From the NCBI GenBank assembly GCA_963748625.1, contig CAVVJT010000007.1, positions 1,184,001 through 1,248,000 of the forward strand: 64,000 bases of DNA, in the 5' to 3' direction. Position 1 is the stretch's first letter, and every line of letters begins with the position of its first letter. Made by a program: the position numbers and the translations under genes. This document shows, piece after piece, positions 6,862 through 42,712 of this stretch. Source of the DNA: an uncultured Chloroflexia bacterium. GTDB lineage: Bacteria; Chloroflexota; Limnocylindria; Limnocylindrales; CSP1-4. The notes beneath the pieces are model-generated. The model made no database searches. It saw only the letters and a list, made by a program, of their open reading frames with translations, and had not been told where the DNA came from.

Positions 6862-8334
6862 CTAGCTGATCGCCGCGGCGGCGGTCCCGACGATCGTGAG
6901 GAGGATCTCCGGGAAGAGGCCGAACACGATCGTGAGCACCGTGGCAACCGTCAGGCCGGCCCAGACCAGCCGACCGTGGCGCATGACCACCGGTTCGCCC
7001 TCCGCGTCGCGCATCCACATGTAGACCACGACACGAAGGTAGTAGAACGCGGCAACCGCGGCATTGAGCATCGTCACCACGGCGAGGACGGTCATCCAGC
7101 CGCCGGCGTTGACCGCGGCCAGGATCACGTAGAACTTGCCGAAGAAGCCGGCCGTCGGCGGGATGCCGGTGAGGCTCAGCAGGAACAAGGTCATCAGGAT
7201 CGCGAGCTTGGGCTCGCGGCGGATGAGGCCGGCGAACGTCGAGAGGTTGGAGGTCACACCCTGGCGGCGCTGGATGGCCGCGATGACCGCGAAGGCGCCC
7301 AGGTTCATGAACGCGTACGCCGCGCCGTAGAACAGCAGCCCCTCCAGGCCCAGGATCTCGCCCTGTGCGAACGCCGCCAGGCCCACGAGCATGTAGCCGG
7401 TGTGCGCGATGGACGAGTACGCCAGCATGCGCTTGACGTTGTCCTGCGTGAGCGCGACCAGGTTGCCCAGGGTCATCGTGAGGACCGCGAGCACCATGAC
7501 GACGGCACTCCAGTAGTCGGCGGAGAGCGGCCCGAGGGCCTCGCCGAACAGGCGGAGGATCAGGGCGAAGGCACCCACCTTCGGGCCGACCGACAGGTAG
7601 CCGGTGACCGGCGTCGGGGAGCCCTGGTACGCGTCGGGCGTCCAGTAGTGGAACGGGACGGCCGCGATCTTGAACGCGACACCCGTCATCAGGAAGGCAA
7701 GCCCGAGGCCCAGGCCCGGTGTCATGGCGACGGCGCCGCTGGCCATCTGGGTCATGACGGCCGCGACGCCCGAGATGCTCGTGGTGCCCGTGAGACCCCA
7801 GACGAACGCGAGGCCGAACAGGAAGATCGCGGACGAGAAGGAGCCCAGGAGGAAGTACTTGATCGCACCCTCGGTGCTGTAGCCGTCGGTCTTGTGGTAC
7901 CCCGCGAGGATGTAGCCCGGCAGGACCATGAGCTCGAGGCCCAGGAACAGCACCAGCAGGTCCGCGGATGCCGCGATGAGCATCGCGCCCGACATTGCGA
8001 ACGCGAGAATCGCAGCGAACTCGGGCACCGGCAGGCCCCGTGCCTCGAGGTAGTCCGGCGCGAACATCATCGTGAGCGCGACGATCGCGATGAACAGGAT
8101 GTCCAGGAAGGTCGTCAGCGGGTCGACGATGTAGACCCCGTTGAAGGCCGTGGAAGTGGCGCCGTCTGCGCCGACCATCAGGGTCAGGGCCGCGGTCAGC
8201 CCCAGGCCCAGGAACGTGGTCAGCAGCGCCGGGACCTTGCGGCCCGGGAAGATGAAGTCGACGATCAGGACCGCCGCCGCGACGAGGACCGCCGCGATGA
8301 AGGGCGCGATGACGATGACGTCGGAGAAGCTCAC
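6862..8334 (-). CDS. nuoN: NADH-quinone oxidoreductase subunit N
   Basis: EGAIKYFLLGS, FKIAAVPFHYWTPDAYQG, KRMLAYSSIAH. Confidence 0.95.
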   Translation of the reverse strand: MSFSDVIVIAPFIAAVLVAAAVLIVDFIFPGRKVPALLTTFLGLGLTAALTLMVGADGATSTAFNGVYIVDPLTTFLDILFIAIVALTMMFAPDYLEARGLPVPEFAAILAFAMSGAMLIAASADLLVLFLGLELMVLPGYILAGYHKTDGYSTEGAIKYFLLGSFSSAIFLFGLAFVWGLTGTTSISGVAAVMTQMASGAVAMTPGLGLGLAFLMTGVAFKIAAVPFHYWTPDAYQGSPTPVTGYLSVGPKVGAFALILRLFGEALGPLSADYWSAVVMVLAVLTMTLGNLVALTQDNVKRMLAYSSIAHTGYMLVGLAAFAQGEILGLEGLLFYGAAYAFMNLGAFAVIAAIQRRQGVTSNLSTFAGLIRREPKLAILMTLFLLSLTGIPPTAGFFGKFYVILAAVNAGGWMTVLAVVTMLNAAVAAFYYLRVVVYMWMRDAEGEPVVMRHGRLVWAGLTVATVLTIVFGLFPEILLTIVGTAAAAIS

Positions 8335-8344
8335 CGTGGTCCTC

Positions 8345-9895
8345 CTACCGCCACAGGGACTGGGCGACGGGGGCGGCCTGTTGGACGAATTCGAGCGTCG
8401 TCTCGACCGAGCCTTGGATCAAGTCCAGGATGAGACCCGGCCAGAGGCCGAAGATCACGACGAGGGCTCCGAGCGGGACCAGGGTCAACGCCTCGACCGG
8501 CCGCATGTCGGTGAGGTGGGACCCCAAGCCCTTGAGGAAGTCCGATAGTTCGCCGAATGCCACGCGCTGGAACATCCAGAGCAGGTAGCCCGCGGCGAAG
8601 ATCATCACGAAGGTGGCAATCAGAGCCGCCAACTGGTTGGCCTCGAAGGTGCCGACCAGGGTCAGGAACTCGCCGACGAACCCGGACAGGCCCGGCAGGC
8701 CGACCGAGGCGAAGACGAAGAACCCGAACGCCGCGGCGAACACTGGGGTCTTCGACCCGAGGCCACCCATCTTGGCGATGGTGCGGTCATGCGTGCGCTC
8801 GTAGATCACGCCCACGAGGAGGAACAGGGCGCCGGTGATGAGACCGTGGTTGACCATCTGCAGGATCGCGCCCTGGAGGCCCTGTTCCGTGAAGACGAAG
8901 ATGCCCAGCGTCACGAAGCCCATGTGGGACACGGACGAGTAGGCGACCAGCTTCTTGAGGTCCGGCTGGACCAGTGCCACGATCGCGCCGTAGATGATGC
9001 CGATCAGCGAGAGGACGATGATGACCGGCGCCCAGCTGTGGGCGGCCTCGGGGAACAGCGGCAGCGCGAAGCGGATGAAGCCGTAGCCGCCCAGCTTGAG
9101 CAGGACACCGGCCAGGATCACCGAGCCCGCCGTGGGCGCCTCGACGTGGGCGTCGGGCAGCCAGGTGTGGAACGGGAACATCGGGACCTTGATCGCGAAG
9201 GCGAGGAAGAACGCGCCGAAGGCGACCAGGCCGAAGGTGCCGCCGAAGGCGCCGGTCTGTGCGAACGAGGTCAGGTTGGTGACGCTGAAGGCGCCGTCCC
9301 AGGTCCCCGTCGTCGCCTGGTAGGTGTAGGCGCAGGCCAGGATCGCGACCAGCATCAGCAGCGAGCCGACGAGGGTGTACAGGACGAACTTGATCGTGGC
9401 GTAGATGCGGTTCTTGCCGCCCCAGATGCCGATGAGCAGGTACATCGGGACCAGGACCAGCTCCCAGAAGATGTAGAACAGGAACAGGTCCAGGGCGACG
9501 AACACGCCGATCATGCCCACCTCGAGGACCAGGAAGGAGACCATGTACTCCTTGACCCGGTTCTGGATGGGACCGAACGACGCAAGGATGCTGATCCAGG
9601 TGAGGGTCGTCGTCAGGACGACGAGCACGATCGACAGCCCGTCAACGCCCACGGCGTAGTTGATCCCGAACATCGGGATCCACGGGATGCTCTCCATGAA
9701 CTGGTAGCCGGGTGTGCCCGCCACGAAGGCGGCGAGCATCAGGAGCGAGGCGACCCAGGCCGCCAGCGCGAAGCCGAGGGCCGTGTAGCGCGCTGCGTTG
9801 GGCCGGCTCGAGGGCGTGAACGCGACAACGAGCGCGCCCAGGAGCGGCAGGAACGTGACGAGGGTCACGAGCGGGAGCGAGGTCAGCGCGCTCAT
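8345..9895 (-). CDS. nuoM: NADH-quinone oxidoreductase subunit M
   Basis: FYIFWE, KVPMFPFHTWLPDAHVEAP, KKLVAYSSVSHMG; ATG at 9895 overlaps the nuoL stop. Confidence 0.95.
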   Translation of the reverse strand: MSALTSLPLVTLVTFLPLLGALVVAFTPSSRPNAARYTALGFALAAWVASLLMLAAFVAGTPGYQFMESIPWIPMFGINYAVGVDGLSIVLVVLTTTLTWISILASFGPIQNRVKEYMVSFLVLEVGMIGVFVALDLFLFYIFWELVLVPMYLLIGIWGGKNRIYATIKFVLYTLVGSLLMLVAILACAYTYQATTGTWDGAFSVTNLTSFAQTGAFGGTFGLVAFGAFFLAFAIKVPMFPFHTWLPDAHVEAPTAGSVILAGVLLKLGGYGFIRFALPLFPEAAHSWAPVIIVLSLIGIIYGAIVALVQPDLKKLVAYSSVSHMGFVTLGIFVFTEQGLQGAILQMVNHGLITGALFLLVGVIYERTHDRTIAKMGGLGSKTPVFAAAFGFFVFASVGLPGLSGFVGEFLTLVGTFEANQLAALIATFVMIFAAGYLLWMFQRVAFGELSDFLKGLGSHLTDMRPVEALTLVPLGALVVIFGLWPGLILDLIQGSVETTLEFVQQAAPVAQSLWR

Positions 9896-11952
9896 CGGGG
9901 CTGCCCCACGATCCACAGGAAGGAGACCGCCATCACGATCAGGCCGACCGCGATGCCCAGGGCGTAGTTCTGCACCCGCCCCGTCTGGATCCTCCGCAAG
10001 CCTCCGCCTGCGTCCCTGGTCACGCTGCCCACGCCGTTGACGGTGCCGTCCACGATCGCGCGGTCGAACCACCAGAGGAACGCGGCGACGCGGCCGCCGA
10101 TCCGGATGAAGAGCAGGTCATTGAGCTCGTCGAACCACCACTTGTTGAGGGAGGCGCGGTAGAGGAAGCGGGTGCCGCTGTTGCGGGCCACGATCGCGTC
10201 GACCTTCGCCTGCTTCACTGGCCGCTTGAAGATGCCGAACAGGTAGATGCCGACGGAGATGCCGAGGGCCGCCGCGGCGACCGAGATCAGCACGAGAACG
10301 CCGTCGATGCCCATCAGCGCGAACGCCTCGGGCGTGCCGTGGAGGTACTCCTCGGCCTCGTGGAACACCGGCTCGAGCCAGCCGACGATCGTGCTCTCCT
10401 GGCCCAGGAACAGCGCGCCGCCGAGGACCAGGCCCAGGAGCATCGAGGGGATGGCGAGCAGGATCAGCGGGACGGTCATCCACTTGCTGCTCTCATGGAT
10501 GTGCGGTTCGACCGCCGGATCCACGCGGGACTCGCCGTAGAAGGTCTTGCCCATGAGGCGCCACATGTAGAACGCGGTCATGACCGCGACCGTCACGCCG
10601 ATGGCCCAGACCCACTGGAAGCCGAACTTGAACGCCTCGCCCAGGATCTCGTCCTTCGAGAAGAAGCCCGCGAAGGGCGGGATGCCGGCGATCGCGATCG
10701 TGCCGATCAGCATCGTCCAGTGGGTGATCGGGATCTTCCTCCACAGGCCGCCCATCCGGTTCATGTCCTGCTCGTCGTGGACCGCGTGGATCACGGAGCC
10801 GGACCCGAGGAACAGCAGGCCCTTGAAGAAGCCATGGGTCATCAGGTGGAAGATCGCCGGGATGAACGCGCCCACGCCGAGCCCGGAGAACATCAGGCCC
10901 AGCTGGGACAGCGTGGAGTACGCGAGCACGCGCTTGATGTCCGTCTGGGTGAAGGCGATCGACGCAGCGAGGATCGCGGTGAAGATGCCGATCGCGGCCA
11001 CCACCACCATGGCGTCCTGCGCGTGGGCGAACAGCAGGTTGGAGCGGGCGACGAGATAGACGCCCGCGTTGACCATCGTTGCGGCGTGGATCAGGGCAGA
11101 GACCGGGGTGGGACCCTCCATCGCGTCCGGCAGCCAGACGTGGAGCGGGAACTGGGCCGACTTGCCCATCGCGCCCGCGAAGACCAGCAGCGCCACGATC
11201 GTGAGCGGCACCACGTTCTCCGCGCCCGTCTCGGTCATGAGCTTGATGCTGTCCTGGATGTTCAGCGTGCCGGTGTTCACGAAGATCGCCATGATCCCAA
11301 GCGCGAACCCGACGTCACCGACGCGGTTGACGATGAAGGCTTTCTTCGCGGCAAGGGCCGCAGACCGCTTGTGGTACCAGAACCCGATCAGGGAGTAGCT
11401 CGACAGGCCCACCAGCTCCCAGCCCGCGAAGACCAGCACCCAGTTGTTGGCCAGGGTGAGCACGAGCATCGAGAACATGAACAGGTTCAGGTAGGCGAAG
11501 AAGCGCCAGGCCGCCTTGTCGTGCGCCATGTACCCGACCGAGTAGATGTGCACGAGCATGCCGATCGTGGTGACCACGATCAGGAGGGCGGCGGTGAGGG
11601 CGTCGACATGGAAGCCGAGCTCGACCTGGAACGAGCCCGCCGGGATCCATGTCCAGAGCATCACGTCGAGACCCTGCTCGCCGAAGGGCTCCATGTGGTT
11701 CAGGGCGGGCCAGACCACGGCCATCGTGATCAGCCACACGGCGATCACGACCAGGACCGGGACGGCCTCAGCCGCGCCGCGCCCCCACTTCGCCTGCAGC
11801 CGGCGCCCGAACAGCGCGGTGAAGGCGAAGCCGAGGATCGGCAGCAGCGCGATGAGCGGGATCAGGATCCCGTAGATGCCGGGATCGGCGGATGCGCCGC
11901 CTTCGACGGCGGTCTCCGTGGAGGCGAGGATGAGGCTCGGGAGGAAGTGCAT
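9892..11952 (-). CDS. nuoL: NADH-quinone oxidoreductase subunit L
   Basis: GKSAQFPLHVWLPDAMEGPTPVSALIHAATMV, NRVGD, QTGRVQNY. Confidence 0.95.
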   Translation of the reverse strand: MHFLPSLILASTETAVEGGASADPGIYGILIPLIALLPILGFAFTALFGRRLQAKWGRGAAEAVPVLVVIAVWLITMAVVWPALNHMEPFGEQGLDVMLWTWIPAGSFQVELGFHVDALTAALLIVVTTIGMLVHIYSVGYMAHDKAAWRFFAYLNLFMFSMLVLTLANNWVLVFAGWELVGLSSYSLIGFWYHKRSAALAAKKAFIVNRVGDVGFALGIMAIFVNTGTLNIQDSIKLMTETGAENVVPLTIVALLVFAGAMGKSAQFPLHVWLPDAMEGPTPVSALIHAATMVNAGVYLVARSNLLFAHAQDAMVVVAAIGIFTAILAASIAFTQTDIKRVLAYSTLSQLGLMFSGLGVGAFIPAIFHLMTHGFFKGLLFLGSGSVIHAVHDEQDMNRMGGLWRKIPITHWTMLIGTIAIAGIPPFAGFFSKDEILGEAFKFGFQWVWAIGVTVAVMTAFYMWRLMGKTFYGESRVDPAVEPHIHESSKWMTVPLILLAIPSMLLGLVLGGALFLGQESTIVGWLEPVFHEAEEYLHGTPEAFALMGIDGVLVLISVAAAALGISVGIYLFGIFKRPVKQAKVDAIVARNSGTRFLYRASLNKWWFDELNDLLFIRIGGRVAAFLWWFDRAIVDGTVNGVGSVTRDAGGGLRRIQTGRVQNYALGIAVGLIVMAVSFLWIVGQPR

Positions 11953-11964
11953 CTCGATCCCCGC

Positions 11965-12297
11965 CTACTGCCGCATCGCGTCGTACTCGTCGACGAGCGG
12001 CGTCTTCTTGTTGCGGTAGATCGCGATCACGATGGCCAGGCCCACCGTCGCCTCGGCGGCTGCGGCCGCCATCACGACGAGGGCGATGACCGAGGCGTCC
12101 ACGTTCAGCGACAGGCTGAAGGCGCCGAAGGCGATGATCGCGAGGTTGACGGCGTTGAGCATCAGCTCGATCGACATCAGCATGCTGATCGCGTTGCGCC
12201 GCGCCAGGAAGCCGAAGGTGCCGATCGCGAACAGGAGGCCCGCGAGGACCAGGTACGCGTCGAGGCTCTGGCTGATCCCGTCGAGGAAGGAGAGCAT
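11965..12297 (-). CDS. nuoK: NADH-quinone oxidoreductase subunit K
   Basis: RRNAISMLMSIELMLNAVN, AAAEATVGLAI. Confidence 0.95.
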   Translation of the reverse strand: MLSFLDGISQSLDAYLVLAGLLFAIGTFGFLARRNAISMLMSIELMLNAVNLAIIAFGAFSLSLNVDASVIALVVMAAAAAEATVGLAIVIAIYRNKKTPLVDEYDAMRQ

Positions 12298-12833
12298 CAG
12301 TCGGTGCCCCCCTTCTCGCGCTTGGCGATGAAGATCCCGCCGATCACGGCCGAGAGGAGCAGGACGCTCACGACCTCGAACGGGAGGACGTAGCCGTCGA
12401 AGAGGCGGGTCGCGAGCTCCACGGTGTTCGTCCAGATCCGGGCGCCGGACTCCGGCCACTCGGTGGAGGCGACCACCACCGCGATGAGGATCGCGAGCAC
12501 CGCGGATGCGATCGCGGCCGGGAACCACTGGGTCTGGAAGACCAGCTCCCTGGGGCCGGCCTTGGACTGGGTCAGCATGATCGCGAACAGGACCAGCACG
12601 CTGATGGCGCCGATGTAGACGAGCACCTGCGTCGCGGCCACCACGGGGGCCCCCGCCAGCACGTAGAGCCCGGCCAGCGCGGCGAAGCAGATGATCATCG
12701 CCAGGCCGCAGCGGATGATGTCGCGCATGGCGACAACCAGGATGGCCGAGCCGACCATGATGGCCGCCAAGGTCATGAACAGGAGGTCATCCCAAGCGAA
12801 CCCCAGCAGCGGGATCGTCTCCGGCAGCGTCAC
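12297..12833 (-). CDS. nuoJ: NADH-quinone oxidoreductase subunit J
   Basis: QVLVYIGAISVLVLFAIML, YVLPFEVVSVLLL. Confidence 0.93.
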   Translation of the reverse strand: MTLPETIPLLGFAWDDLLFMTLAAIMVGSAILVVAMRDIIRCGLAMIICFAALAGLYVLAGAPVVAATQVLVYIGAISVLVLFAIMLTQSKAGPRELVFQTQWFPAAIASAVLAILIAVVVASTEWPESGARIWTNTVELATRLFDGYVLPFEVVSVLLLSAVIGGIFIAKREKGGTD

Positions 12834-12842
12834 GCGTCCCTC

Positions 12843-15471
12843 TCAGCGTTCGTGGGCGTGGCTCGACCCGTTGCCGGAGTCGTGGCCATTGCCGTTCCCG
12901 AGCGAGGCAGGCAGGACGGGGAGCAGCCGGGCCTGGTCGATGGTTCGACCCTCGGCCCGGGCACGCTCGGCCCAGTCGCGCTCGCGGCGGATGTAGCTCA
13001 TCTCTGTCTCGCGCTCCACCGAGGCCAGGGCGAGCAGGTCGATCATCGGCTCCTCGCGGCTGACGTGGGCAAGCTCGAACTGGTCCGAATCGCGGACGGC
13101 GTCGTACGGGCAGGCGTCGACGCAGATGCCGCACAGGATGCAGCGGCTCTCGTCGACGTCGTACTTCTGCAGCACCCGGGGCTTGGGCATCAGCGCCCCC
13201 GTGGGGCACGTCTCGGCACAGCGGCCGCAGGACACGCACGGCGTGTCGTTGAGGCTCATGTCGAGCGGCGTCGTCACCAGGGTGTCGAAGCCGATCCGCA
13301 TGAAGTCGTAGCAGGCGGCGCCCACCACCTCTGCGCAGACGTTGGCGCAGCGGCCGCAGTCGATGCAGCGCGAGGGCTCGCGGAGGATGAAGGCGTGGGA
13401 GTCGTCGCGGACGTAGTCGTGGTTGACGCCGGTGAAGCGGTTCTCGGTGACCGAGCGGTACCCGGCGCCCTGGTGGTAGCCCTTCTCCAGGGACTTGAGC
13501 GTGGTCCCGTACTCGATGCCCAGGCGGCGCAGGTCGCAGAAGCCAATCGCCTCGCAGGTGCACTGCAGGCAGCGGGTGGACTCCTTGATGGCCTCGTCGC
13601 GGGTGTACGGAATCTCGTACTCGACGTACGTGGTCTTGACCTCTTCGAGGTCCAGGGCCTTGAGGCGGTAGCGCGGCTCCTTCGGCTCGCCGGTGAACGG
13701 CACGATCGAGAGGAACTCCGGCTGCGGCTCGGCCAGCGTCTGGCGGGTCCGGATGGCGGCGAGGTCGTTGCCCTTGAGGTAGGCGTCCACCGCGTAGGCG
13801 GCACGCCGACCCTCGGCGATGGCCTGGACCACGGTCGCGGCGCCGATTCGCACGTCGCCGGCGCCGAAGACGCCGGGGCGGCCGGTCTCGAAGGTGACCG
13901 CGTCGGCCTGGAGCCGGCGGTTCTTCGTGGCCGCGATCCCGCCGGACCCGTTGCCGAGCCAGCGCAGGTCGGGGCCCTGGCCGATCGCGAGCATGACGCG
14001 GTCGCAGGGGATGGTGAACTCGGTGCCGGCGGCGGGCTCGGGGCGGCGGCGACCGGACGCGTCGGGCTCGCCCAGCTGCATCCGGATGAACTCGATGCCC
14101 TCCACCTTGCCGCTCTCGCCCACGATCACGCGGGTGGGGCCGGCCTGGAAGATGGCGACGACGCCCTCATCGAGCGCCTCGTGGACCTCGGAGGCCGCCG
14201 GCATGTCCTTCATGTCGCGCCGGTAGACCAGCGTGACCTCGGGGCTGCCCTGGCGGATGGAGGTGCGCACGGTGTCCATCGCGGAGAAGCCACCGCCGAC
14301 CACCACGACGCGGGCCTTGTCATGGCCCGGGTACGGGAGGCCCAGGGTGGCGGTGCGCAGGTAGTCGAGGGCGTCGATGACGCCGTCCGCGTCCTCGCCC
14401 GGGATGCCGAGCTTGTTCGTGTCGTAGCAGCCGATGGCGACCACGACCGCGTCGAAGCCCTGGTGCTGCAGGTCCTCGACCGTGAAGTCCTTGCCCAGCT
14501 CCTGGTTGCAGCGCATCTTCCCACCGAGGCGGGTGACGGACTCGTACTCAGCCTCGAGGACCTCGACCTTGGGCAGGCGGTACTGCGGGATGCCGTACCG
14601 GAGCATGCCGCCCGGCGCAGGGTCACGCTCGAAGACGGTCACTTCGTGGCCCGAGAGCAGGAGGTAGAAGGCGGCCGACATGCCGGCGGGTCCGGAGCCG
14701 ATGACGGCGGCGCGGCGGCCGGACGGGGCCTGCTTCTCGAAGGGGAGCGGGGGATCGACGTTCTCGTCGTGCATGGCGCGCAGGACCTGGTCGCCGGCGT
14801 ACCGGTGGCTGTCGCGGATCGCGATCGCCTCGTCGACCTCGTCGCGCCGGCAGTGCTCCTCGCACGGGGCGGGACAGACGCGGCCGAGCACGCTGGGGAA
14901 CGGGATGGTGCGCTTGAAGATCCGCACCGACTCGCGCCAGTTCGCCTCGGCGTTCGCCTTGAGGAAGCCCGGGATGTCGATGTGGCTGGGGCACTTGTTC
15001 TGGCAGGGCGGCAGGCAGTACGCGTTGTGGTCCGAGAAGATCAGCTCGAGGTTGGTCTTGCGGATCCGGCGCAGCTCGTCGGTCTGGGTCTGGACCTTCA
15101 TCTCGGGCTCGGCCAGGCGCGAGCAGGAGATCGGCGGCTGGTCCTCGCCCTCCACCTCGACCACGCACATCCGGCAGGCACCGAAGCCCGGCAGCTTGGG
15201 CTCGTAGCAGAGGGTGGGGATCTCGATGCCGTTGTCACGGCAGACCTCGAGGATCGTCTGGCCCTCGAAGCCCTCGATCAGGCGGCCGTCCACCTCGAGG
15301 CGGATGCGCGGCGTGCTCTGGGGCCGCTGCGGGCTCTGCGTGGTGATGAACCGCTCCGCGAGGGAGTCCTCGCTGCGGCGTGATGGTGTCCAGGGTGGCC
15401 GGCTGGTCGGGCCGGACCTCCTTGTTGCGGGTCGCGGGGACGTCCTGGGGACGAACGATGAGGTCGGCCAT
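12843..15471 (-). CDS. NuoG-N / GltD-like FAD-NADPH iron-sulfur flavoprotein fused to the C-terminal half of NuoI (apparent frameshift near 15375; main frame 12843-15293)
   Basis: 2Fe-2S motif IPTLC...GACRMC...SC; GltD Fe-S motifs PCQNKCP and VCPAPCEEHCRR; GSGPAG FAD motif; GGGFSAMD...VYRR NADPH motif; three CxxCxxCxxxC motifs, the last followed by NuoI-like FELA..SR. Confidence 0.85.
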
Positions 15472-16809
15472 CAGCGGGCTCCTGCTGCCGTCGCACCGGC
15501 GCCCATCGCGATCGGCGTACAGACGCCGGCCGGGCAGGTGGAGCGAACAAGGTGGTCGTCGAGCTCGGAGCGGAAGTGGCGCATGGCGCTGGTGAACGCC
15601 AGGGTGGCCTTGCGCTCGTGGTCGCAGAGCGCGGAGGCCGAGATGTCGTGGGCGAGGTCCTCGAGCAGGACCGCGTCGTTGGCGCGCGGGGTGCCCGCCG
15701 CGATCCGGTCGCCGATCTCCGAGAGACGGCGCAGGCCGATGCGGCACGGGATGCTCTTCCCGCAGGCGTTGTCGGCGGAGAAGCGGGTCAGGAGCCGGGC
15801 GAGGTCGACGACACAGGCCCGGTCGTCCGCGATCACCACGGAGCCGGAGCCGACGTGCGCGCCGGCGGCCTCGAGCGAGGCGTAGTCGTAGGGGGTGTCC
15901 AGGAGGTCGGCCGGGAGGAGCCCGCCCGTGGAGCCGCCGACCAGGACCGCCTTGAGCGGGCGCCCGCCGGTGCCGCCCGGCAGCGGCCACGAGGTCACGT
16001 AGCGGGGTGCCCAGGGCCACCTCGACGATGCCGCCGCCCTGCGGGCCACGGACCGCGACGAGCGTGGTGCCCGGCGAGCCAGGGATGCCGATGGCCGAGT
16101 ACGCCTCACCGCCCAGCCGCACGATCCAGGGGACCGCGGCGAGCGTGAGGATGTTGTGGACAAGGGTGGGCTTGTCGAACAGGCCGCGCTCGGTGGGGTA
16201 GGGCGGCTTCTGCTCGGGCTGGCCGCGCTTGCCCTCGAGGGCCTTGAGCAGGACCGTCTCCTCGCCCAGCATGTAGGCCCCCTGGAGGCCGCGGACCGTC
16301 ACGTTGACCGTGTGCCCGGAACCCAGGATGTCCTCGCCCAGGAGGTTCGCCTCCTCGGCCGCCTGGACCGCGCCCTCGAGCATGGCCACAAGCCCCGCGT
16401 CCTCGCCGCGGACGACGAGGATCGCCTCCGTGGCGCCGACGGCGTAGGCCGCGATCACGAGGCCCTCGATGACGAGGTACGGGTCGGCGGTGAGCAGCGC
16501 CTGGTCGATGCGGACCGACGGGTCGGCGCCGTAGCCGTTGGCGACCACGTAGCGCTGGACGGGGCCGGACTCGGCGACCGCGCGCCACTTGTCGGCGGCG
16601 GGGTAGCCGGCGCCGCCGCGGCCGCGCAGCCCGGCGGCCCGGATGGTCGCCATCGTGGTGGTGCCGCCATCGCGGACGGCCTTGCGCAGGCCCTCGAACG
16701 CGCCCGCCTTGACGGCGGCGTCCAGGTCGGCCGGGTTGGCCTTGAGCGTCTCCATGCGGCCGGTGAGGACCGCGGGCGTGCCGGCCTTGGCGGGGAGGAA
16801 GGTGGTCAT
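15471..16809 (-). CDS. NuoF/HydB-like flavoprotein, degenerate, with a +1 frameshift near 15978
   Basis: GLRGRGGAGYP, GAYMLGEET, LEGKRGQP..KPPYP, GSGSVVI, CGKSIPCR, CPAGVC; two overlapping ORFs join at gccgggcggc. Confidence 0.85.
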
Positions 16810-17471
16810 CAGCTCGCCTTGCCCCCGTAGCCGAGCGACGCGTCGAGCGCCGAGCGGAAGCGGTCCTCGGCCACGACCTGCGCGGTGCCGGCCGCGGGTG
16901 CGGTCGCGACGGCCGGCGGCTCGAAGCGGAGGTGCCGGTAGTAGGTCGCGGTGCCGTAGATCATCGCGTACCAGGCGCCCGTGGCGCGGGAGATGTGCTT
17001 GAGCGCGGCCACCGGCAGGTAGCCGTACTCGGCCTGCGTCTCGTCGAGGATCGCGAGCATCTCCTTGGGGTCCCAGTCATGGGCCTCGAGGATCGCGTCG
17101 AGCGGGGCGATGTCGATGCCGTCGAAGCGGGTGTACGCCATGTCGGCAACCGGGCGGCCGGAGCGGCGCAGCGCGGACTCCTCGCGGCGCTCGCCGTAGG
17201 TCTCGGATGCGCCCCAGTGGACGTGGAACCGGCCCTTGGTGTCCACGCCGCCCATGTCGATGCACTCGATCGGACAGGCCTGGGCGCACTGGAAGCAGGT
17301 CTCGCACTTGAGCGAGCCGTACTCGTCGTACAGGAGCTGCAGGCGGCCGCGGAACTTGGGCGCGACGTCCGCCTTCTCCTCGGGCCACTTGATGGTCGCC
17401 TTCGGCTGGAAGAAGCGGCGCAGCGTCAGGCTCATGCCGCGGACGAGACCGATGCCGGGGATCGTGTTCAT
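16809..17471 (-). CDS. Fusion of the NuoI N-terminal half and a NuoE N-terminal helical domain
   Basis: TIKWPEEK...FRGRLQL...CETCFQCAQACPIECI (a single cluster motif), then LAILDETQAEYGYLP...IYGTATYY..LR (NuoE-N); no Cys afterwards. Confidence 0.85.
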   Translation of the reverse strand: MNTIPGIGLVRGMSLTLRRFFQPKATIKWPEEKADVAPKFRGRLQLLYDEYGSLKCETCFQCAQACPIECIDMGGVDTKGRFHVHWGASETYGERREESALRRSGRPVADMAYTRFDGIDIAPLDAILEAHDWDPKEMLAILDETQAEYGYLPVAALKHISRATGAWYAMIYGTATYYRHLRFEPPAVATAPAAGTAQVVAEDRFRSALDASLGYGGKAS

Positions 17472-17474
17472 CGG

Positions 17475-18872
17475 TCAGCCACCCTGGATGGTCTTGACCA
17501 CGATGATCGCCGTGGCCGTGAGGAACAGGTTGAGCAGAGCAGCGGGCAGGAGCCACTTCCAGGCGAAGCCCATGAGGTGGTCGATCCGCACGCGCGGGAA
17601 CGTGGCGCGCATCCAGACGAAGACGAAGACGAAGGCGAAGCTCTTGATGAAGAACCAGAGCATGCCCGCGACCCAGTCCCAGCTGATGAACGCGAACAGG
17701 AACGCTGCGCCGATCGCCACCACGTTGAACAGCAGGAAGCCCGCCACCAGCGCCTTCCAGGCGGGAGCGCCGCGCTTGGCGAGGTAGTACGGCAGGGCGA
17801 ACAGCAGCGTCAGGACCACCGGCACGACCAGCAGGAGCACCAGCAGGCCCATGCCCAGGCTGCCCGGGTCGAGGCTGATGGTGATCGGCTGGAGGCTGGT
17901 GCCGGCCCAGGAGTTGATCCACGCGAGGGTGGCGTTGAGGTCGACCGGCGCGTTCCAGGCCCCGAAGAAGAAGGTCGTCAGCAGCGCCGACACGATGAAC
18001 ACGTTCACGTACTCGGCGAAGAACAGGAAGCCGAACCGCATGCCCGAGTACTCGGTGGCGAAGCCGGCGACGATCTCCGAGTCCGCCTCGGTGAGGTCGA
18101 ACGGCGTCCGGTTGGCCTCCGCGATGGAGGCGATGAAGAAGATCAGCGCGCCCAGCGGCTGGCGGAAGACGAACCAGTCGGTGAACCAGCCCGCCTGCTG
18201 GTTGGCCAGCTCGTAGACCGACAACGAGCCCGCGAGCAGGATCAGGCCCACGACCGAGAGGGTCAGCGGGATCTCGTACGAGACCATCTGCGCCGCGGAG
18301 CGCAGGCCGCCCAGCAGCGAGTACTTGTTGCTTGACGACCAGCCGGCGAGCAGCAGGCCCACCACCGTCATGCCGCCCACCGCGAACAGGTAGAGCACGC
18401 CGATGTTGAGGTCCTGGCCGACGAGGCCCGGGCCGAACGGGATGACCAGGAACGTCATCACCGCGGTCAGGAACACGAGGACGGGCGCCCACGTGAACAC
18501 GAGCACGTCGGCGTTGCCGGGGGTGAAGTCCTCCTTGGTCAGCACCTTGAGACCTGCGACCACGGAGTGGGCGGCGCCCTTGGGGCCGACCCGGTCCGGG
18601 CCCACGCGGAGGTTCATGAAGGCGATGACCTTCAGCTCCATGTAGATGATGAGGAACGCGGCCGGGATGCTGAACAGCAGGACGCCGGTGATGGCGACCA
18701 GGAACCGGACGATCCCCATGTTCGAGCTGAGCACGTCCGCCAGCCACGGGCCCAGGACTGTCAGCGCGAAGATCGCCAGGAGCGGCCCGACCACCAGGAC
18801 TAGGACCAGCAGCGGGATGACGATCTTGCCGAGGACCGTCATGTTGTTCCAGGTGCGGGTGAGTGTCGTCAT
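17475..18872 (-). CDS. nuoH: NADH-quinone oxidoreductase subunit H
   Basis: RVGPDRVGP, NKYSLLGGLRSAAQMVSYE, NRTPFDLTEADSEIVAGFATEYSG. Confidence 0.95.
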   Translation of the reverse strand: MTTLTRTWNNMTVLGKIVIPLLVLVLVVGPLLAIFALTVLGPWLADVLSSNMGIVRFLVAITGVLLFSIPAAFLIIYMELKVIAFMNLRVGPDRVGPKGAAHSVVAGLKVLTKEDFTPGNADVLVFTWAPVLVFLTAVMTFLVIPFGPGLVGQDLNIGVLYLFAVGGMTVVGLLLAGWSSSNKYSLLGGLRSAAQMVSYEIPLTLSVVGLILLAGSLSVYELANQQAGWFTDWFVFRQPLGALIFFIASIAEANRTPFDLTEADSEIVAGFATEYSGMRFGFLFFAEYVNVFIVSALLTTFFFGAWNAPVDLNATLAWINSWAGTSLQPITISLDPGSLGMGLLVLLLVVPVVLTLLFALPYYLAKRGAPAWKALVAGFLLFNVVAIGAAFLFAFISWDWVAGMLWFFIKSFAFVFVFVWMRATFPRVRIDHLMGFAWKWLLPAALLNLFLTATAIIVVKTIQGG

Positions 18873-18880
18873 CGTCCGGC

Positions 18881-20125
18881 CTACTTGTCGATGCCGCCCA
18901 TGATCGGGTCGAGCGATGACATCACTGCCATCGTGTCCGCGATCAGGTTGCCCTTCACCAGCAGGCCGACCAGCTGCAGGTTCACAAACGACGGGTCGTG
19001 GATCTTGAGCCGGAACGGCTGGTCGGTGCCGTCGGAGATGGCGTAGGTTCCGAACAGGCCGCGCGGGCCTTCGACAGCCGCCCAGGCGCGCCCGGGCCGC
19101 GGCCGGACCAGCCGGGGCAGGCGTGCCATGACGGGTCCATCGGGCATGTTGTGGAGGCACTGGTCGATGATCCGCAGGCTCTGCTTGATCTCGTCGAGGC
19201 GCAGCAGGTAGCGGTCCAGGGAGTCACCGCCCTCCGGGCCGGTGCCGCGGACGGGGATGTCGAACTCGAGCTCCGGGTACACGGAGTAGGGATGGTCGCG
19301 GCGGAGGTCGAACTTGACCCCGGCGGCCCGCAGGTTGGGGCCGGTGACACCCATCCGGAACGCGAGGTCGGGGTCCACCCGGCCGATGTCGCGCATGCGG
19401 CGGACGAAGATCTCGTTCTCGTTGAGCAGGCCGGCGTTGGCCTCGATCTGGGTCAGCGCGCGGCTCATCCAGTCGCCCAGGCGGGACATGAACTCGTGGT
19501 TGACGTCGCCGTTCACGCCGCCGATGCGGAAGTAGTTGAACAGCATCCGCTGGCCGGTGATGGAGGCCAGCATCTCCACGATCTCGTCGCGCTCGATGAA
19601 CGCGTAGAGGATGGGCGTGAGGCCGCCGAGGTCGAGCGCCATGAACCCCTGGAAGAGGCCGTGGCTCGAGATGCGCAGCAGCTCGCCGGTCAGCACGCGG
19701 ATGTACTCGGCGCGCCTGGGGACCTCGACGTCGAGCAGCTGCTCGAACGCCATCACCGGCGCCCACTCGCAGAACAGCGAGCTCACGTACTCGAGCGGGT
19801 CCATCTGGGTGATGACGTGGTGGTAGTCCGAGTTCTCGGCGATCTTCTCCACGCCCCGGTGGAGGTATCCGAGGACCGGGTCCAGGTCCACGACCTGCTC
19901 GCCGTTGATCTTGAGGACGACGCGCAGCACGCCGTGCGTGGACGGGTGGTGCGGACCCATGTTGATGAGCATCTCGCCGTCGGCCACGGAGTAGAACTCG
20001 GCCTCGCGCTCGGTGCGCGGCGGATACGGCGGGATGGACTCGAACTGCCCGATCTGGTCGTCGAGCATGATCCGCGGGTCGTCCAGGGAGGGGTGCTGGC
20101 CCGGGCGGGCCTGGGAGGTCGTCAT
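18881..20125 (-). CDS. nuoD: NADH-quinone oxidoreductase subunit D
   Basis: NMGPHHPSTHGVLR, LGYLHRGVEK, VEGPRG, SLDPIMGGIDK. Confidence 0.95.
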   Translation of the reverse strand: MTTSQARPGQHPSLDDPRIMLDDQIGQFESIPPYPPRTEREAEFYSVADGEMLINMGPHHPSTHGVLRVVLKINGEQVVDLDPVLGYLHRGVEKIAENSDYHHVITQMDPLEYVSSLFCEWAPVMAFEQLLDVEVPRRAEYIRVLTGELLRISSHGLFQGFMALDLGGLTPILYAFIERDEIVEMLASITGQRMLFNYFRIGGVNGDVNHEFMSRLGDWMSRALTQIEANAGLLNENEIFVRRMRDIGRVDPDLAFRMGVTGPNLRAAGVKFDLRRDHPYSVYPELEFDIPVRGTGPEGGDSLDRYLLRLDEIKQSLRIIDQCLHNMPDGPVMARLPRLVRPRPGRAWAAVEGPRGLFGTYAISDGTDQPFRLKIHDPSFVNLQLVGLLVKGNLIADTMAVMSSLDPIMGGIDK

Positions 20126-20127
20126 GG

Positions 20128-20676
20128 TCAGGCCTTCACCGTGCGGCGCACGACACGCTCCGTCGCCTGGACGGGCACGTGGGACCGCTCCATCTGGCGC
20201 ACGCCGGCGCCGGGGGAGCGGGCGGCGTCGTCGGGGAGATAGAAGTCCTTGCGGAGCGGAAAGCTGACGTAGTCCGGCGGCATGTAGATGCGCCGCAGGT
20301 CCCGGTTCCCCTCGAAGACGATCCCGAACATGTCGTACGTCTCGCGCTCCATCCACTCGGCACCGGGCCACAGGCCGGTCAGCGTGGGTACGCGCGGGTT
20401 GTCACGCGGGAGCGGTTCGCAGATCACGCGCAGCCAGTCCGGCGTCGTGGCCGCCCAGACGTGGTAGGTCACGTTCATGTGCTCGCCGGTGTCCACGCCG
20501 GCAAGGTCCGCCAGCATGACGAAGGCGAAGTCCGGCTCGTCGTGGAGCGCGGTCAGGACCTCGATGACGTCCGCCGGGCCGACGCGGATCTCGGTCTGGT
20601 CGTGCCGCTGGCGGACGGGTCCCACGAGCCTGTCCGCGAACCGTGCCTCGAGGCGCTTGCGCAGCTGACGGTCCAC
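20128..20676 (-). CDS. nuoC: NADH-quinone oxidoreductase subunit C
   Basis: WPGAEWMERETYDMFGIVFEG..DLRRI...PLRKDF. Confidence 0.93.
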   Translation of the reverse strand: MDRQLRKRLEARFADRLVGPVRQRHDQTEIRVGPADVIEVLTALHDEPDFAFVMLADLAGVDTGEHMNVTYHVWAATTPDWLRVICEPLPRDNPRVPTLTGLWPGAEWMERETYDMFGIVFEGNRDLRRIYMPPDYVSFPLRKDFYLPDDAARSPGAGVRQMERSHVPVQATERVVRRTVKA

Positions 20677-20678
20677 GG

Positions 20679-21428
20679 CTAGACGTCCTTCGGCACGGTG
20701 GGGCCGACGCGGTGCTCGTCCCAGTGGCCGCGCCGCTCCTTCACGAGCTGGCCCAGCTTCATCATCCCGTAGATGAGACCCTCGGGACGCGGCGGGCACC
20801 CGGGGACGTACACGTCCACCGGCATCAGGCGGTCGATGCCCTCAACCGTGGCGTACGAGCGCTTGTAGCGGCCGCCCGAGCAGGTGCAGTCACCCATCGC
20901 CACGCACCACTTGGGCTCCGGCATCTGCTCCCACAGGCGGACGAGCGGACCGGCCATCTTGGTGGTGAGCGTGCCCGCGACGATCAGCACGTCCGCCTGG
21001 CGGGGGCTGGCGCGGAACGGGAACATGCCCCAGCGGTCCATGTCGTTCTTGGACGTGGCGCTGGACATCATCTCGAACGCGCAGCAGGCGAGGCCCGACA
21101 GCAGCGGCCAGAGGCTGTTCATCCGGATCAGGTCGACGATGTAGTCGGCCTTGGTGGGGATCACCTCGAGCTGGCCCCAGCGCGCGGTGTCGGACACCTG
21201 GCCGTCCGTGCCCTCGAGGGCCGCGAGGTGGTAGTAGGGCGCGGGGGCCGGGTAGGCGGCGGGGTTGTTCGAGGCCCAGAGGGAGTTCGGCACGATCAGC
21301 GGGGCCGCCACGCCGGACGGCTGTGCCGAGACCAGCGCGCCGGGCAGGCTCCCGGGCTGGTCAGCGCCAATGGGTGAGGCATCACCCGCCGCGGCAGCGG
21401 CCTCGGGACCTTCGGGGTTCAGCGCCAC
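20679..21428 (-). CDS. nuoB: NADH-quinone oxidoreductase subunit B
   Basis: GLACCAFEMM, RASPRQAD, VDVYVPGCPPRPE. Confidence 0.95.
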   Translation of the reverse strand: MALNPEGPEAAAAAGDASPIGADQPGSLPGALVSAQPSGVAAPLIVPNSLWASNNPAAYPAPAPYYHLAALEGTDGQVSDTARWGQLEVIPTKADYIVDLIRMNSLWPLLSGLACCAFEMMSSATSKNDMDRWGMFPFRASPRQADVLIVAGTLTTKMAGPLVRLWEQMPEPKWCVAMGDCTCSGGRYKRSYATVEGIDRLMPVDVYVPGCPPRPEGLIYGMMKLGQLVKERRGHWDEHRVGPTVPKDV

Positions 21429-21775
21429 GACAGCACTCCCTTGCGCCAGGCATAGGCGAGGCCGAGCAGGAGGACGCCGACGAAGATCAGCATGCTCACG
21501 AGGCCGCCCAGCAACAGGTCCTGGAAGACCAGGGCCCAGAGGTAGATGAACACGACCTCGATGTCGAAGGCCACGAACATCAGCGCGTAGATGTAGAAGC
21601 TGATGCCGAACCGGGCGTGGGTGTCGCCGTAGGTGTCGATGCCCGACTCGTAGGGGTAGCCCTTGTGCTCGTCACCGCGGGTGCGGTGGGAGATCAGCCA
21701 GGCCAGGCCGATCGTGCCGAAGACGAACAGGGTGCCGGCGATGGCGAACCCGACGACATACCAGATCCCGGTCAC
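21419..21775 (-). CDS. nuoA: NADH-quinone oxidoreductase subunit A
   Basis: PYESG, FYIYALMFVAFDIE, YAWRKGVLSW; GTG start inferred. Confidence 0.93.
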   Translation of the reverse strand: MTGIWYVVGFAIAGTLFVFGTIGLAWLISHRTRGDEHKGYPYESGIDTYGDTHARFGISFYIYALMFVAFDIEVVFIYLWALVFQDLLLGGLVSMLIFVGVLLLGLAYAWRKGVLSWR

Positions 21776-21885
21776 GTGATCCTCGAGGTCGAATGGGACC
21801 GCGTGTGCACTGCGCGGTCCGCGTTCGAGGTGTGATGGTTTGTTGCGTGTGCACCGGACCTCACTGGGCGAGGCACGGCGCGGAC

Positions 21886-21894
21886 ATTCTAGCA
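21886..21894 (-). promoter_or_regulatory. Candidate extended -10 promoter of the nuo operon
   Basis: TG-c-TAGAAT on the minus strand, about 110 bp upstream of nuoA. Confidence 0.45.
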
Positions 21895-22017
21895 AGGCAG
21901 GTGCTGGAGGAATCACCTTCCGGCCCAGTCATGGCGGCCCATCCGGCTCTCAACGTGGGGGCCGGTGGCGCCCTCCGGGTGGCACGCGGTCGTGACCGGC
22001 GCCGGCTCGATCGCCAC

Positions 22018-30153: not shown

Positions 30154-31275
30154 TCAGCCGGCGCCCAGGATCGCCCGCACTTCGTGCGCGATCTCGAGGT
30201 CCTCGCGGGCCCGGATGACCAGCGACCGGACCGGGGCATCCTCCCGCCCGATGGCGGCATCCGGGACAGCGGCGGCGTTCGCTGCCATGTCCAGCCCGAC
30301 GCCCAGGTAGCCCAACTCGCGCGCTGCAAGCTCCCGGATCGCGGCCGAGTTCTCCCCGACCCCGCCCGTGAACAGGAGCACGTCGAGTCCGCCCATCGCG
30401 GCCGTCATCGAGGCGATCGAGCCACGCAGCCGATGGACGTAGACGTCGCGCGCCAGGACGGCCGTGGTGTCGCCGGCATCGGCGGCGTCGAGCACGCTGC
30501 GCATGTCGGCCACGCCGGCCAGTCCCAGCAGGCCCGAGCGGTGTTCCAACGTGGACGCGAGCTCCGCCGGTGGCATCCGCACGTGCTCCAGCAGCCAGAT
30601 GACGAGGCCGGGGTCCACCGTCCCCGACCGGGTCGCCATGACGAGCCCCTCGAGGGGCGTGAAGCCCATGGTGGTGTCCACGGAGCGGCCGCCCGCCACC
30701 GCCGCGAGCGACGCGCCGGCGCCGAGGTGGCAGCTGACGATCCGCAGGTCCTCCACCGGCCGCCCGACCATCTCCGCCGCCCGGCGCGAGGCATAGGCAT
30801 GCGAGAGTCCGTGGAAGCCGTAGCGGCGGAGGTCCCACCGCGTGCGCCACTCGGCCGGCAGCGCGTACGTGGTTGCGGCGGCCGGCATCGACGCATGGAA
30901 GGCGGTGTCGAAGCAGGCGACCGCAGGCACGCCCGGGAGCGCCTCGCTCACGGCCGCGAGCGCCGCGAGGGACTTCGGCTGGTGGAGCGGCGCAAGGTCG
31001 ATCAGCGCCCGCAACCGGTCCTCGACCCGGCCGTCCACGATCACCGGTCCCGAGTAGGTCGTCCCGCCGTGGACGATCCGGTGCCCGACGGCGGCGATGC
31101 TGCCGAACCCGCGCAGCGCATCGGTCAGCGCCGCGGTATCGAGCCGGCCCGCCGGGGCTGCCAGGTCCACGCTCGCGACAACGCCGTCCTGGTCGTCGAG
31201 GACACGCAGCTTGAGGCTGCTCGACCCCGCGTTGACGACGAGGATCGGCCCCAGCGAGGAGGTCAGCCCGGCCAT
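30154..31275 (-). CDS. ackA: Acetate kinase
   Basis: [59 protein letters not shown]. Confidence 0.94.
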
Positions 31276-41796: not shown

Positions 41797-42204
41797 CTAC
41801 GGGGTCTGGTCCGAACCGTCGTCCGGCCTGGGACCCGGGGGGGCAGGGGTTCGACCCGCCGCACGGCCTGCGCCGCTGGGCTGGTCCTCCCCCCTGTCAC
41901 GGGTCCCTTCGTCGTAGAGGGCCTCGAGGATCCTTTTGCCAAGGCGTTCCTCGAGCTCGAACAGGGTGCGAACCCCGGCGAGGTTCACGCCGCGGTCACG
42001 GGTGAGGTGCCGGATCCACAGGATCCGGCGGATGTCCTCCTCCGAGTAGAGGCGGATGTTGGTGGGTGTGCGTGCCGGACAGACCAGGCCCTCGTCCTCG
42101 TAGATCCGCAACGTCCTCGGGTGGGCGGACACGAGGGTCGCGGCCACGCTGATGACGTAGACGGGTCGAGTGGGGTCCCGGTCAGGCCGGCGCGCAGCCG
42201 ACAT
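41797..42204 (-). CDS. hspR: HspR-like MerR-family heat-shock repressor
   Basis: VYVISVAA.LV..HPRTLRIYE..GLV.PART..R.YS..D...GVNLAGV; chaperone operon context. Confidence 0.82.
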   Translation of the reverse strand: MSAARRPDRDPTRPVYVISVAATLVSAHPRTLRIYEDEGLVCPARTPTNIRLYSEEDIRRILWIRHLTRDRGVNLAGVRTLFELEERLGKRILEALYDEGTRDRGEDQPSGAGRAAGRTPAPPGPRPDDGSDQTP

Positions 42205-42205
42205 G

Positions 42206-42712
42206 TCAGGCAGAGGGGGTTGCGGTGGCGGGCGCCGTGGACTCGAGGGTCTTCGCCTCGCCGGTGCTCACGGGCTGGATCCGGATCTGGCGCGGCTTCA
42301 CCTGCTCTGCCCTCGGCAGGCGCAGGCGCAGGACGCCGTTCTCGAACGTCGCCTCGGTCTTGTCCGGCTCCAGGCCGGTCGGCAGGGTCACGGTCCGCAT
42401 CACGGAACCGCGGCTGATCTCCCGGACGACCCAGCCGGCCCGCTCATCCGTCTCCTCCGAGCGGTCCTCGGCACGGATGGTGAGGGTGCCGTTCTCCACG
42501 GTGATGTCCACGTCCTCGGGCTTGAAGCCCGGGAGGGAGGCGGTCACGAGGAGGGCGTCCTTGGTGGTTCGGACATCGAGCGGGATGCGCGCGTCGCCGG
42601 CGCTCCCGTAGGCCGCGTACGGCCGGAACACGGTGTCATCGAAGAGGCGGTCCATCGCCTGGCGAAGCGTCACGAGCTCGCTGAAGGGCGACGGGCGACG
42701 GGTCATCGTCAT
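42206..42712 (-). CDS. Small heat shock protein Hsp20
   Basis: LPGFKPEDVDITVEN..LTI, ATFENGVLRLRLP; AGGAGG RBS. Confidence 0.93.
   Translation of the reverse strand: MTMTRRPSPFSELVTLRQAMDRLFDDTVFRPYAAYGSAGDARIPLDVRTTKDALLVTASLPGFKPEDVDITVENGTLTIRAEDRSEETDERAGWVVREISRGSVMRTVTLPTGLEPDKTEATFENGVLRLRLPRAEQVKPRQIRIQPVSTGEAKTLESTAPATATPSA

Follow-up and report, generated by a model that had tools for sequence, protein, structure and literature searches.

Through which nucleotide site do electrons enter a complex I in which the N-module, usually seen as a fixed NuoEFG unit of an NADH-specific enzyme, appears to have been swapped for a unit with an added NADPH site? This question is raised by a nuo operon of an uncultured Chloroflexia bacterium (Limnocylindria, Limnocylindrales, CSP1-4; contig CAVVJT010000007.1 of assembly GCA_963748625.1), of which we analysed a window of 64,000 nucleotides (positions 1,184,001 to 1,248,000 of the contig). 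The gene in question lies on the minus strand at 12843..15471 of the window and encodes a protein that resembles the large subunit of StnABC/NfnABC-type transhydrogenases, i.e. StnC or NfnA. A first-pass annotation, made from the sequence without database searches, had taken it for the electron entry of a proton-pumping complex that oxidises NADPH rather than NADH, or that makes NADPH by reverse electron transport. Based on our findings we propose, with a probability of about 60%, that the N-module of the sole complex I of this Limnocylindria genome is a trimmed relative of the Stn/Nfn-Bfu transhydrogenases (order C-B-A), which sits inside a split nuoI gene and provides dual entry for NADH and NADPH.

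The large subunit, termed StnC' here, is read as an 816-aa protein from an uninterrupted open reading frame (ORF; 12843..15293, minus strand, GTG start). A NuoG/HydA-type [2Fe-2S] domain at its N-terminus (15081..15290; residues 2-71, Pfam Fer2_4) is followed by a GltD-type unit (13572..15014; Fer4_20, residues 93-171, and Pyr_redox_2, residues 195-495). The latter has everything expected of a GltD/NfnB-type protein, namely two [4Fe-4S] motifs, a flavin adenine dinucleotide (FAD) loop (GSGPAG), the GGG run of a second Rossmann fold (GGGFSAMD) and basic residues after strand β2 (YRR). It is flanked by the two parts of the His/Cys cluster motif, H89/C93 and C575-C586, and the Pfam model for the NuoG His/Cys cluster, NADH-G_4Fe-4S_3, is matched over the first 17 of its 40 positions only (residues 78-94). 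Next comes a 2x[4Fe-4S] ferredoxin-like domain (13191..13388; C643-C653 and C686-C696), which is recognized by Fer4_Nqo3 (residues 636-701) and overlaps a Fer4 dicluster match (residues 686-732). The first-pass annotation had described this layout of a [2Fe-2S] domain and a GltD unit inside the His/Cys motif correctly, as judged from Pfam, the translation and the PDB alignment, and all of its motifs (SDHNAYC, GSGPAG, GGGFSAMD, VYRR, RCLQCTC..FC) are in the translation; Pfam likewise finds no molybdopterin domain in the 816-aa protein, as had been stated for its C-terminus. The 2x[4Fe-4S] domain was also rightly placed after the GltD unit, but three CxxCxxCxxxC(P) motifs rather than two follow that unit, the third of which belongs to NuoI. 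A reading of this third motif as the Fe4S4 motif of a molybdenum enzyme (StnC aligns there) was rejected, as the motif is CxxCxxCxxxCP and continues into NuoI-like sequence.

We ranked the kinship of StnC' and of the NuoF-like protein encoded next to it by E-values against PDB chains. The best match of StnC' is 9bov_A (1e-154; query residues 2-729 on residues 9-700 of 1178), presumably the Caldicellulosiruptor enzyme of PMC11829005, followed by StnC of Sporomusa ovata (8oh5_C, 7e-139) and archaeal NfnA (9n5u_A, 3.6e-138), in agreement with the likeness to the StnABC/NfnABC large subunit noted at first pass. NfnB/NfnL, GltD and dihydropyrimidine dehydrogenase chains come next at 7e-78 to 5e-37 (e.g. 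4ylf_B, 7.1e-78, and 2vdc_G, 5.9e-64), and NuoG of complex I scores far lower (2fug_3, 5.1e-15). The alignment to the three best chains stops at about residue 700 of their 1172-1178 residues, and StnC' ends some 110 residues after its ferredoxin domain, i.e. both Pfam and PDB matches show it to lack the FdhF-like C-terminal domain of StnC/NfnA.

YRR marks NADP(H) preference in GltD-family proteins, and where the name of a structurally solved relative of the GltD part includes a nucleotide, this is mostly NADP(H). Judged from motifs and likeness, the GltD site thus probably prefers NADP(H). The residues concerned are well conserved among 91 relatives. No exceptions occur at C29, C40, C43 and C57 of the [2Fe-2S] domain, at YRR, at the GGG run or at any Gly of the GxGxxG loop, and H89, C661, the Cys of the GltD unit, the four Cys of the [2Fe-2S] domain and all twelve Cys of the three ferredoxin-type motifs each occur in no fewer than 90. 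Only the Ser and Ala residues of GSGPAG are somewhat more variable (82/91 and 83/91, respectively).

How such a protein could be tied to a membrane complex is indicated by its C-terminus. The last 113 residues of StnC' match the second part of NuoI chains (8qby_I, residues 93-147 of 163; 7ar7_I, residues 99-148 of 169), and this match extends about 25 residues past the Cys motif, whereas matches to polyferredoxins span the motif only. This second NuoI half (NuoI-C; 13014..13184, minus strand) consists of the CxxCxxCxxxCP motif C718-C728 and the segment that follows, with a conserved tail running to the stop codon at 12843, and is separated from the 2x[4Fe-4S] domain by a conserved 21-residue linker. 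The other half (NuoI-N; 17172..17471, minus strand), comprising the N-terminal segment and the first CxxCxxCxxxCP, makes up residues 1-100 of a 220-aa protein encoded at 16809-17471, of which residues 2-73 match the TYKY/NuoI chain 7ar7_I (residues 16-87 of 169, 2.7e-13). Of the 121 positions of the NuoI model TIGR01971, 1-66 are matched by the 220-aa protein (51.2 bits) and 71-116 by StnC' (44.1 bits); both scores fall short of the cut-off (113.05), as those of halves should. NuoI is therefore not a single 2x[4Fe-4S] polypeptide here, its motifs being distributed over two proteins, and as the halves match complementary parts of 7ar7_I and TIGR01971, nuoI has been cut between its two cluster motifs. 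The gap holds the entire cassette, with overlapping stop and start codons at both internal junctions, and the first NuoI motif is kept in 78 of 79 relatives. With half of NuoI at the C-terminus of StnC', the association with a membrane complex, on which the first-pass annotation depended, has firmer support than it had then. A predicted fold of the two halves with two clusters scored 0.33, compared to 0.02 for the best control, with partner pLDDT (predicted local distance difference test) values of at least 56 and at least 79% of contacts shared between runs; of 80 solved complexes, 58 attained the mark applied, as did 2 of 110 mismatched pairs, but at scores of 0.60 or less it was attained by only 7 of the 80 and by both mismatched pairs.

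The remainder of the 220-aa protein is a NuoE/StnA-like stub (NuoE'; 16848..17120, minus strand, residues 118-208). Residues 117-209 match the NuoE-like chains 9bov_C (residues 20-112 of 176) and 8oh5_A (residues 16-110 of 178), but the protein has no cysteine beyond its one CxxCxxCxxxCP motif, i.e. the stub has no [2Fe-2S] site. Two forms of the stub exist, the short Cys-free form in the window's family and a form in proteins of 273-285 aa that carries CxCxxC, with or without a fourth Cys (24 of 79 relatives), which suggests, as far as sequences can tell, that the [2Fe-2S] site of NuoE was lost stepwise within Limnocylindria. In eight genomes (G079, G373, G124, G261, G277, G397, G205 and G365) no stop codon separates the NuoI-N/NuoE' frame from the NuoF-like gene, so that open frames reach 683-764 aa, and the same is seen at locus L062; these would be three-part fusions.

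Between the halves, at 15471..16809 of the minus strand, lies the gene of the NuoF-like flavoprotein (NuoF'), which is of the BfuB-core type. We used an intact relative (L010, 442 aa; relatives have 442-445 aa) as query, and the closest chains are BfuB-type proteins (HydB, NfnB, StnB), i.e. 9bov_B (1.6e-87), 8a6t_B, 9n5u_B and 8oh5_B, down to 5.2e-84; NuoF of complex I ranks lower (8e9g_F, 1.8e-68; others at about 1e-47 to 1e-59 among the matches listed). Only the BfuB core is matched (residues 113-526 of 584 in 9bov_B), and NuoF' has neither the N-terminal domain of BfuB nor its C-terminal 2x[4Fe-4S] domain. Consequently, the set that characterises Bfu enzymes, namely the [2Fe-2S] cluster C1 of BfuC, the N-terminal domain of BfuB and the C-terminal clusters B3 and B4, is absent. 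The nucleotide and flavin motifs of NuoF' are nevertheless largely intact in 80 sequences, all of which are kin: most residues of the Gly-rich loop are found in 74-79 of them, with variation at an Ala and a Phe position, GEET is nearly invariant (G182 and E183 in 80, E184 in 79, T185 in 75), an Asp matching E97 of the Thermus protein occurs in 79, and three of the four cluster Cys are present in all 80. An NADPH-type entry, as claimed at first pass, is likely, but the exclusion of NADH that went with it lacks support, given a NuoF-like gene directly upstream whose motifs for flavin mononucleotide (FMN) and NADH are near-invariant.

The cassette interrupts an otherwise complete nuo operon with the order nuoA-B-C-D-H, [NuoI-N + NuoE'], NuoF', [StnC' + NuoI-C], nuoJ-K-L-M-N. 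Pfam matches and ORF bounds place nuoA, B, C, D and H upstream (17475..21916; 21419-21916, 20679-21428, 20128-20799, 18881-20371 and 17475-19160, respectively) and nuoJ, K, L, M and N downstream (6862..12833; 12297-12833, 11965-12528, 9892-11952, 8345-10072 and 6862-8334), all in contiguous minus-strand ORFs from 6862 to 21916. All ten genes have Pfam matches, as a complex I requires, and the canonical NuoEFG is missing: the NuoE model TIGR01958 scores 17.8 (cut-off 142.4), the NuoG model TIGR01973 81.7 (cut-off 470.05) and the NuoF model TIGR01959 302.2 (cut-off 558.65).

The genome (4.6 Mb, 10 contigs, 98.3% complete, 7.7% contamination) holds two NuoD and two NuoH matches. The second set is part of a cluster of the group-4-hydrogenase type (L114; G000:C7:60000-79999) with a fused NuoC/NuoD/NiFe large subunit and two Mrp-type antiporter subunits. 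Four other NuoF homologues lie next to a [NiFe] hydrogenase, in a NuoF-GltD fusion with a hydrogenase, next to a formate-dehydrogenase-like subunit and next to a ferredoxin-domain protein. The fusion is encoded by minus-strand ORF 6926-11068 of locus L116 (G000:C5:79000-98999), combines a NuoF-type FMN/[4Fe-4S] unit with a GltD unit in 1380 aa, and has as neighbours a NuoG-like Fe-S protein of 235 aa and the large subunit of a [NiFe] hydrogenase; by its gene content this locus looks like a second, soluble enzyme with NuoF and GltD parts. As the second NuoD/NuoH set and the other NuoF genes belong elsewhere, the operon in the window is the genome's only complex I.

Both NuoF' and StnC' are broken in the assembly. 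The window has a G+C content of about 70% and long open frames on both strands; a plus-strand ORF of 843 aa (12852..15383) was dismissed as a high-GC shadow frame, its translation being of low complexity (Ala, Gly, Arg, Asp). The start of StnC' is the ATG at 15471, which, by the start and stop codons of the three frames, shares its A with the TGA stop codon of the upstream NuoF-like gene, so that the upper limit given at first pass is exact. The sequence there encodes the N-terminal peptide of relatives of 861-890 aa, and the resulting extension of about 59 residues (15294..15471), kept in relatives, is in another frame in the window. Thus the gene is 2629 nt long, one nucleotide more than the 2628 of an intact frame, with the N-terminal peptide one base off, and would encode about 875 aa if read through an extra base near 15374. 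Similarly, the NuoF-like gene spans 1339 nt, one base too many, with an extra base near 15976 that breaks it up into ORFs 15235-16809 and 15471-16163; a single open frame is seen in 69 of 72 relatives. The sites were compared with Logan contigs of relatives (best share of words 0.31, 4-5% different, i.e. another strain), and of those from run X1 one contig lacked one base near 15374 and another lacked one base near 15976. A third apparent frame change in the window, near 41908-42728 on the plus strand, where one ORF of a genus-mate matches frames 1 and 3, came from a crude comparison with that genus-mate that covered 36 further ORF matches, and it fits an assembly with indel errors. We consider it very probable that both extra bases are assembly indels.

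The arrangement is widespread. StnC' has 7987 database clusters at E <= 1e-10, the best 120 of which are 81-100% identical and, where named, belong to Limnocylindrales or Chloroflexota, and 587 of 600 pattern matches, one genome per species, encode a relative. For synteny we used the best 80 loci in Limnocylindria (72-91% identical) and followed nine parts, namely NuoH, both NuoI halves, both NuoF' parts, three StnC' parts and NuoJ. All nine are found in the same order in 64 loci, and in 15 of the other 16 a contig end leaves too little upstream DNA for the missing genes; StnC' with NuoI-C, followed by nuoJ, is present in all 80. In a sample of 401 Chloroflexota genomes, full-length matches to the NuoI-N/NuoE' protein were found in 23/23 genomes of the window's family, in 4/4 order-mates, all with genomes of 1.1-1.4 Mb, and in two further families of the class (16/16 at about 40% identity and 2/2 at about 30%). 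Full-length matches of about 30% identity also occur in four families of other classes. There, the cassette lies directly after nuoB without nuoD or nuoH beside it in 7 of 8 loci (from the set L102-L109, L119-L121), locus L107 also having nuoC-D-H; a nuoC-D-H set of the same type is found elsewhere in three other-class genomes that were fetched, and a NuoD of the canonical type, with NuoB at a distance of a few kb, is additionally encoded in each of the five other-class genomes checked. Two metagenome-assembled genomes labelled Acidobacteriota-type and Verrucomicrobiia (L028 and L050) carry copies of 80-83% identity, which we take to be binning errors. Elsewhere in the window, two minus-strand ORFs at 30154-33665 (31263-33665, 800 aa, and 30154-31548, 464 aa) resemble phosphoketolase and acetate kinase by eye.

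How might such a complex work? In StnABC, according to the accessible parts of PMC10482914, NADPH reduces FAD and electrons pass via C7-C6-C5-C4-C3 to the FMN subunit, with clusters C1 and C2 of StnC, which lead towards the FdhF-like domain, forming a branch off the electron path. In Limnocylindria, the two NuoI halves would assemble into the ferredoxin fold that holds N6a and N6b and would tether the module to NuoB/D of the Q-module. NADPH would be oxidised at the FAD of the GltD unit and NADH at the FMN of NuoF', both feeding one Fe-S wire, from which the 2x[4Fe-4S] domain of StnC' would pass electrons to N6a/N6b, N2 and finally menaquinone; the ferredoxin-domain branch, a dead end in StnC, would thus have been turned into the connection to N6a/N6b. 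With low-potential menaquinone as acceptor, NADPH might add driving force, its cellular pool being the more reducing one. The module would have no ferredoxin site and would not bifurcate electrons, because it lacks the [2Fe-2S] cluster of the E subunit (C1) as well as the C-terminal clusters of the B subunit. We go one step further, tentatively and at slightly less than even odds, and suggest that an stnABC-like operon was inserted into nuoI, giving rise to a two-flavin NADH (FMN)/NADPH (FAD):menaquinone pump with the former dead-end branch as N6a/N6b link, which would be the first complex I-type proton-pumping NADPH dehydrogenase. A split core Fe-S subunit as a mode of module exchange is not known to have been described for the complex I family.

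Several observations weigh against dual entry, and some of them favour an alternative in which NADPH alone is oxidised, at the GltD FAD, and NuoF' is a structural remnant that passes no electrons. The second Cys of the [4Fe-4S] (N3/B1) motif of NuoF' is lost in 69 of the 80 related sequences (Thr in 48, Ser in 17, Ala in 4; Cys is kept in 11) and is a Ser in the window (motif region 15552-15806); if the cluster went with it, the FMN would have no connection to the wire. Moreover, the acidic nucleotide loop NADEGDPG reads NGY(G/E)ADP, the NuoE cluster is lost in the window's family and NuoF' stays below the cut-off of its NuoF model. However, all 69 sequences that lack the second Cys have a Glu at position +3 after the fourth Cys, 54 of them together with a His at +2, and the 11 that retain it read GFG or GHG there, so Glu/His near the fourth Cys may, on this pattern, be a replacement ligand. 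The near-invariance of the Gly-rich loop and GEET and the full retention of the other three cluster Cys are hard to square with a remnant, NuoF' is the only NuoF-family gene in four streamlined genomes of 1.1-1.4 Mb, and the genome has no other complex I for NADH, with no search made for a type II NADH dehydrogenase (NDH-2). We thus regard entry of NADPH alone as unlikely. Further points to be held against dual entry are that two nucleotide sites on one wire would amount to an uncoupled transhydrogenase unless they were gated; that PntB is also present in this genome and in 5/5 relatives tested; that the fold of the NuoI halves is weak support, and its pass may come from likeness to solved NuoI; and that one locus of the 80, the only one of its kind (L056, 1-3153), has about 3.1 kb of upstream sequence without a match to NuoF' or NuoI-N/NuoE'.

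That NuoF' and StnC' are both broken as assembled counts against a working module as well, the contigs without the extra bases coming from relatives only, and neither site is a long homopolymer. Were both frameshifts real, NuoF' and StnC' would be pseudogenes and the module dead in this strain. We hold this to be quite improbable: apart from the one extra base each gene is open and conserved, StnC' being 93% identical to the intact relative P0003 over 100% of the query, the module belongs to the genome's only complex I, and the further frame change in the window points to an indel-prone assembly. Equally improbable is a complex that mainly runs in reverse, i.e. one in which quinol and the proton-motive force drive the reduction of NADP+ (and NAD+) for biosynthesis. 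Complex I is reversible, the GltD site is of the NADP(H) type and the [NiFe]-hydrogenase clusters of the genome could feed the quinone pool, but NADPH is usually made by way of PntB, the 1.1-1.4 Mb genomes retain the design with NuoF' as their only complex I-type NuoF gene, and a direction cannot be read from sequence. Least of all do we expect a bifurcating or confurcating enzyme that also uses ferredoxin, as proposed for the Geobacter-type Nuo-Bfu. NuoF' and StnC' are closest to Bfu-family chains, and Schut et al. predicted membrane-bound Nuo-Bfu complexes (PMC9304861, accessible parts). Yet the minimal bifurcation site is B1-FMN-C1 (accessible parts of PMC11829005), the Cys-free stub offers no C1 and NuoF' is devoid of the N- and C-terminal cluster domains of BfuB; in StnABC, loss of the [2Fe-2S] cluster of StnA abolishes bifurcation (PMC10482914, same limits as above). 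Dual NADH/NADPH entry without bifurcation hence remains the reading that we favour.

The operon appears to provide the only complex I of a widespread class of bacteria that are abundant in soil and freshwater. Should NADPH indeed feed straight into the pump, the redox balance and energy yield of these organisms would have to be modelled differently, and the view of how complex I gained its input modules would change too. In public annotation the proteins that carry NuoI halves are called "ferredoxin", "NAD(P)H-dependent oxidoreductase subunit E", "FAD-dependent oxidoreductase" or "formate dehydrogenase major subunit", and under such names annotation pipelines may score these genomes as lacking NuoE, NuoG and NuoI.

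No account of NuoI in two parts, or of a complex I with a GltD unit in Chloroflexota, came up in the literature, supplementary tables being outside the search, and the complex is best understood by comparison with its nearest counterparts. With canonical 14-subunit complex I, such as Nqo1-15 of T. thermophilus or Nuo of E. coli, it shares nuoABCDHJKLMN in one operon, both NuoI motifs, an FMN subunit and a subunit with [2Fe-2S], His/Cys and [4Fe-4S] clusters. It differs in that NuoI is distributed over two polypeptides, NuoE has no cluster, the molybdopterin-like domain of NuoG is absent and a second flavin site, the FAD of the GltD unit, is present; the gene order is ABCDH-(I/E)-F-(G/GltD/I)-JKLMN, and the NCBIfam models for NuoE, NuoF, NuoG and NuoI all stay below their cut-offs.

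The predicted Nuo-Bfu complexes of Schut et al. (2022, PMC9304861) likewise have a Bfu-type module in the middle of a nuo operon that replaces NuoEFG. In contrast to the cassette described here, they keep the full BfuBC core and have no GltD unit, and the accessible parts of that paper mention no split NuoI. The same parts report them for Deferribacteres, Proteobacteria, Planctomycetes and Nitrospirae, not for Chloroflexi, and state that a ferredoxin-type domain was required of the BfuB set; having no such domain, NuoF' would fall outside this set. In the Mbx-like operons of Degli Esposti (2015, PMC4758237) a GltD-type NAD(P)H flavoprotein is also found on a complex I-related membrane complex. 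There, as far as the accessible parts of the paper go, the flavoprotein replaces NuoI in an Mrp/hydrogenase-type complex, whereas the operon in the window keeps NuoI as halves together with a true nuo core. The NUO-2 complex of Nitrospina (PMC3578206, accessible parts) is among the nearest ideas, too.

The closest kin of the cassette are the soluble-type transhydrogenases StnABC and NfnABC (Nfn-Bfu), with which it shares the gene order E-like, F-like, large subunit and, within StnC/NfnA, the [2Fe-2S] domain, the His/Cys cluster into which a GltD unit with its FAD and NADPH sites is set, and the 2x[4Fe-4S] domain. StnC carries an FdhF-like C-terminal domain that mediates tetramer formation, and it is exactly here that StnC' has the second half of NuoI instead. 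Moreover, NuoF' is without the extra N- and C-terminal metal domains, NuoE' is a clusterless stub fused to NuoI-N, and the genes lie inside a nuo operon, i.e. in contrast to StnABC/NfnABC the module is presumably membrane-bound, quinone-linked and non-bifurcating.

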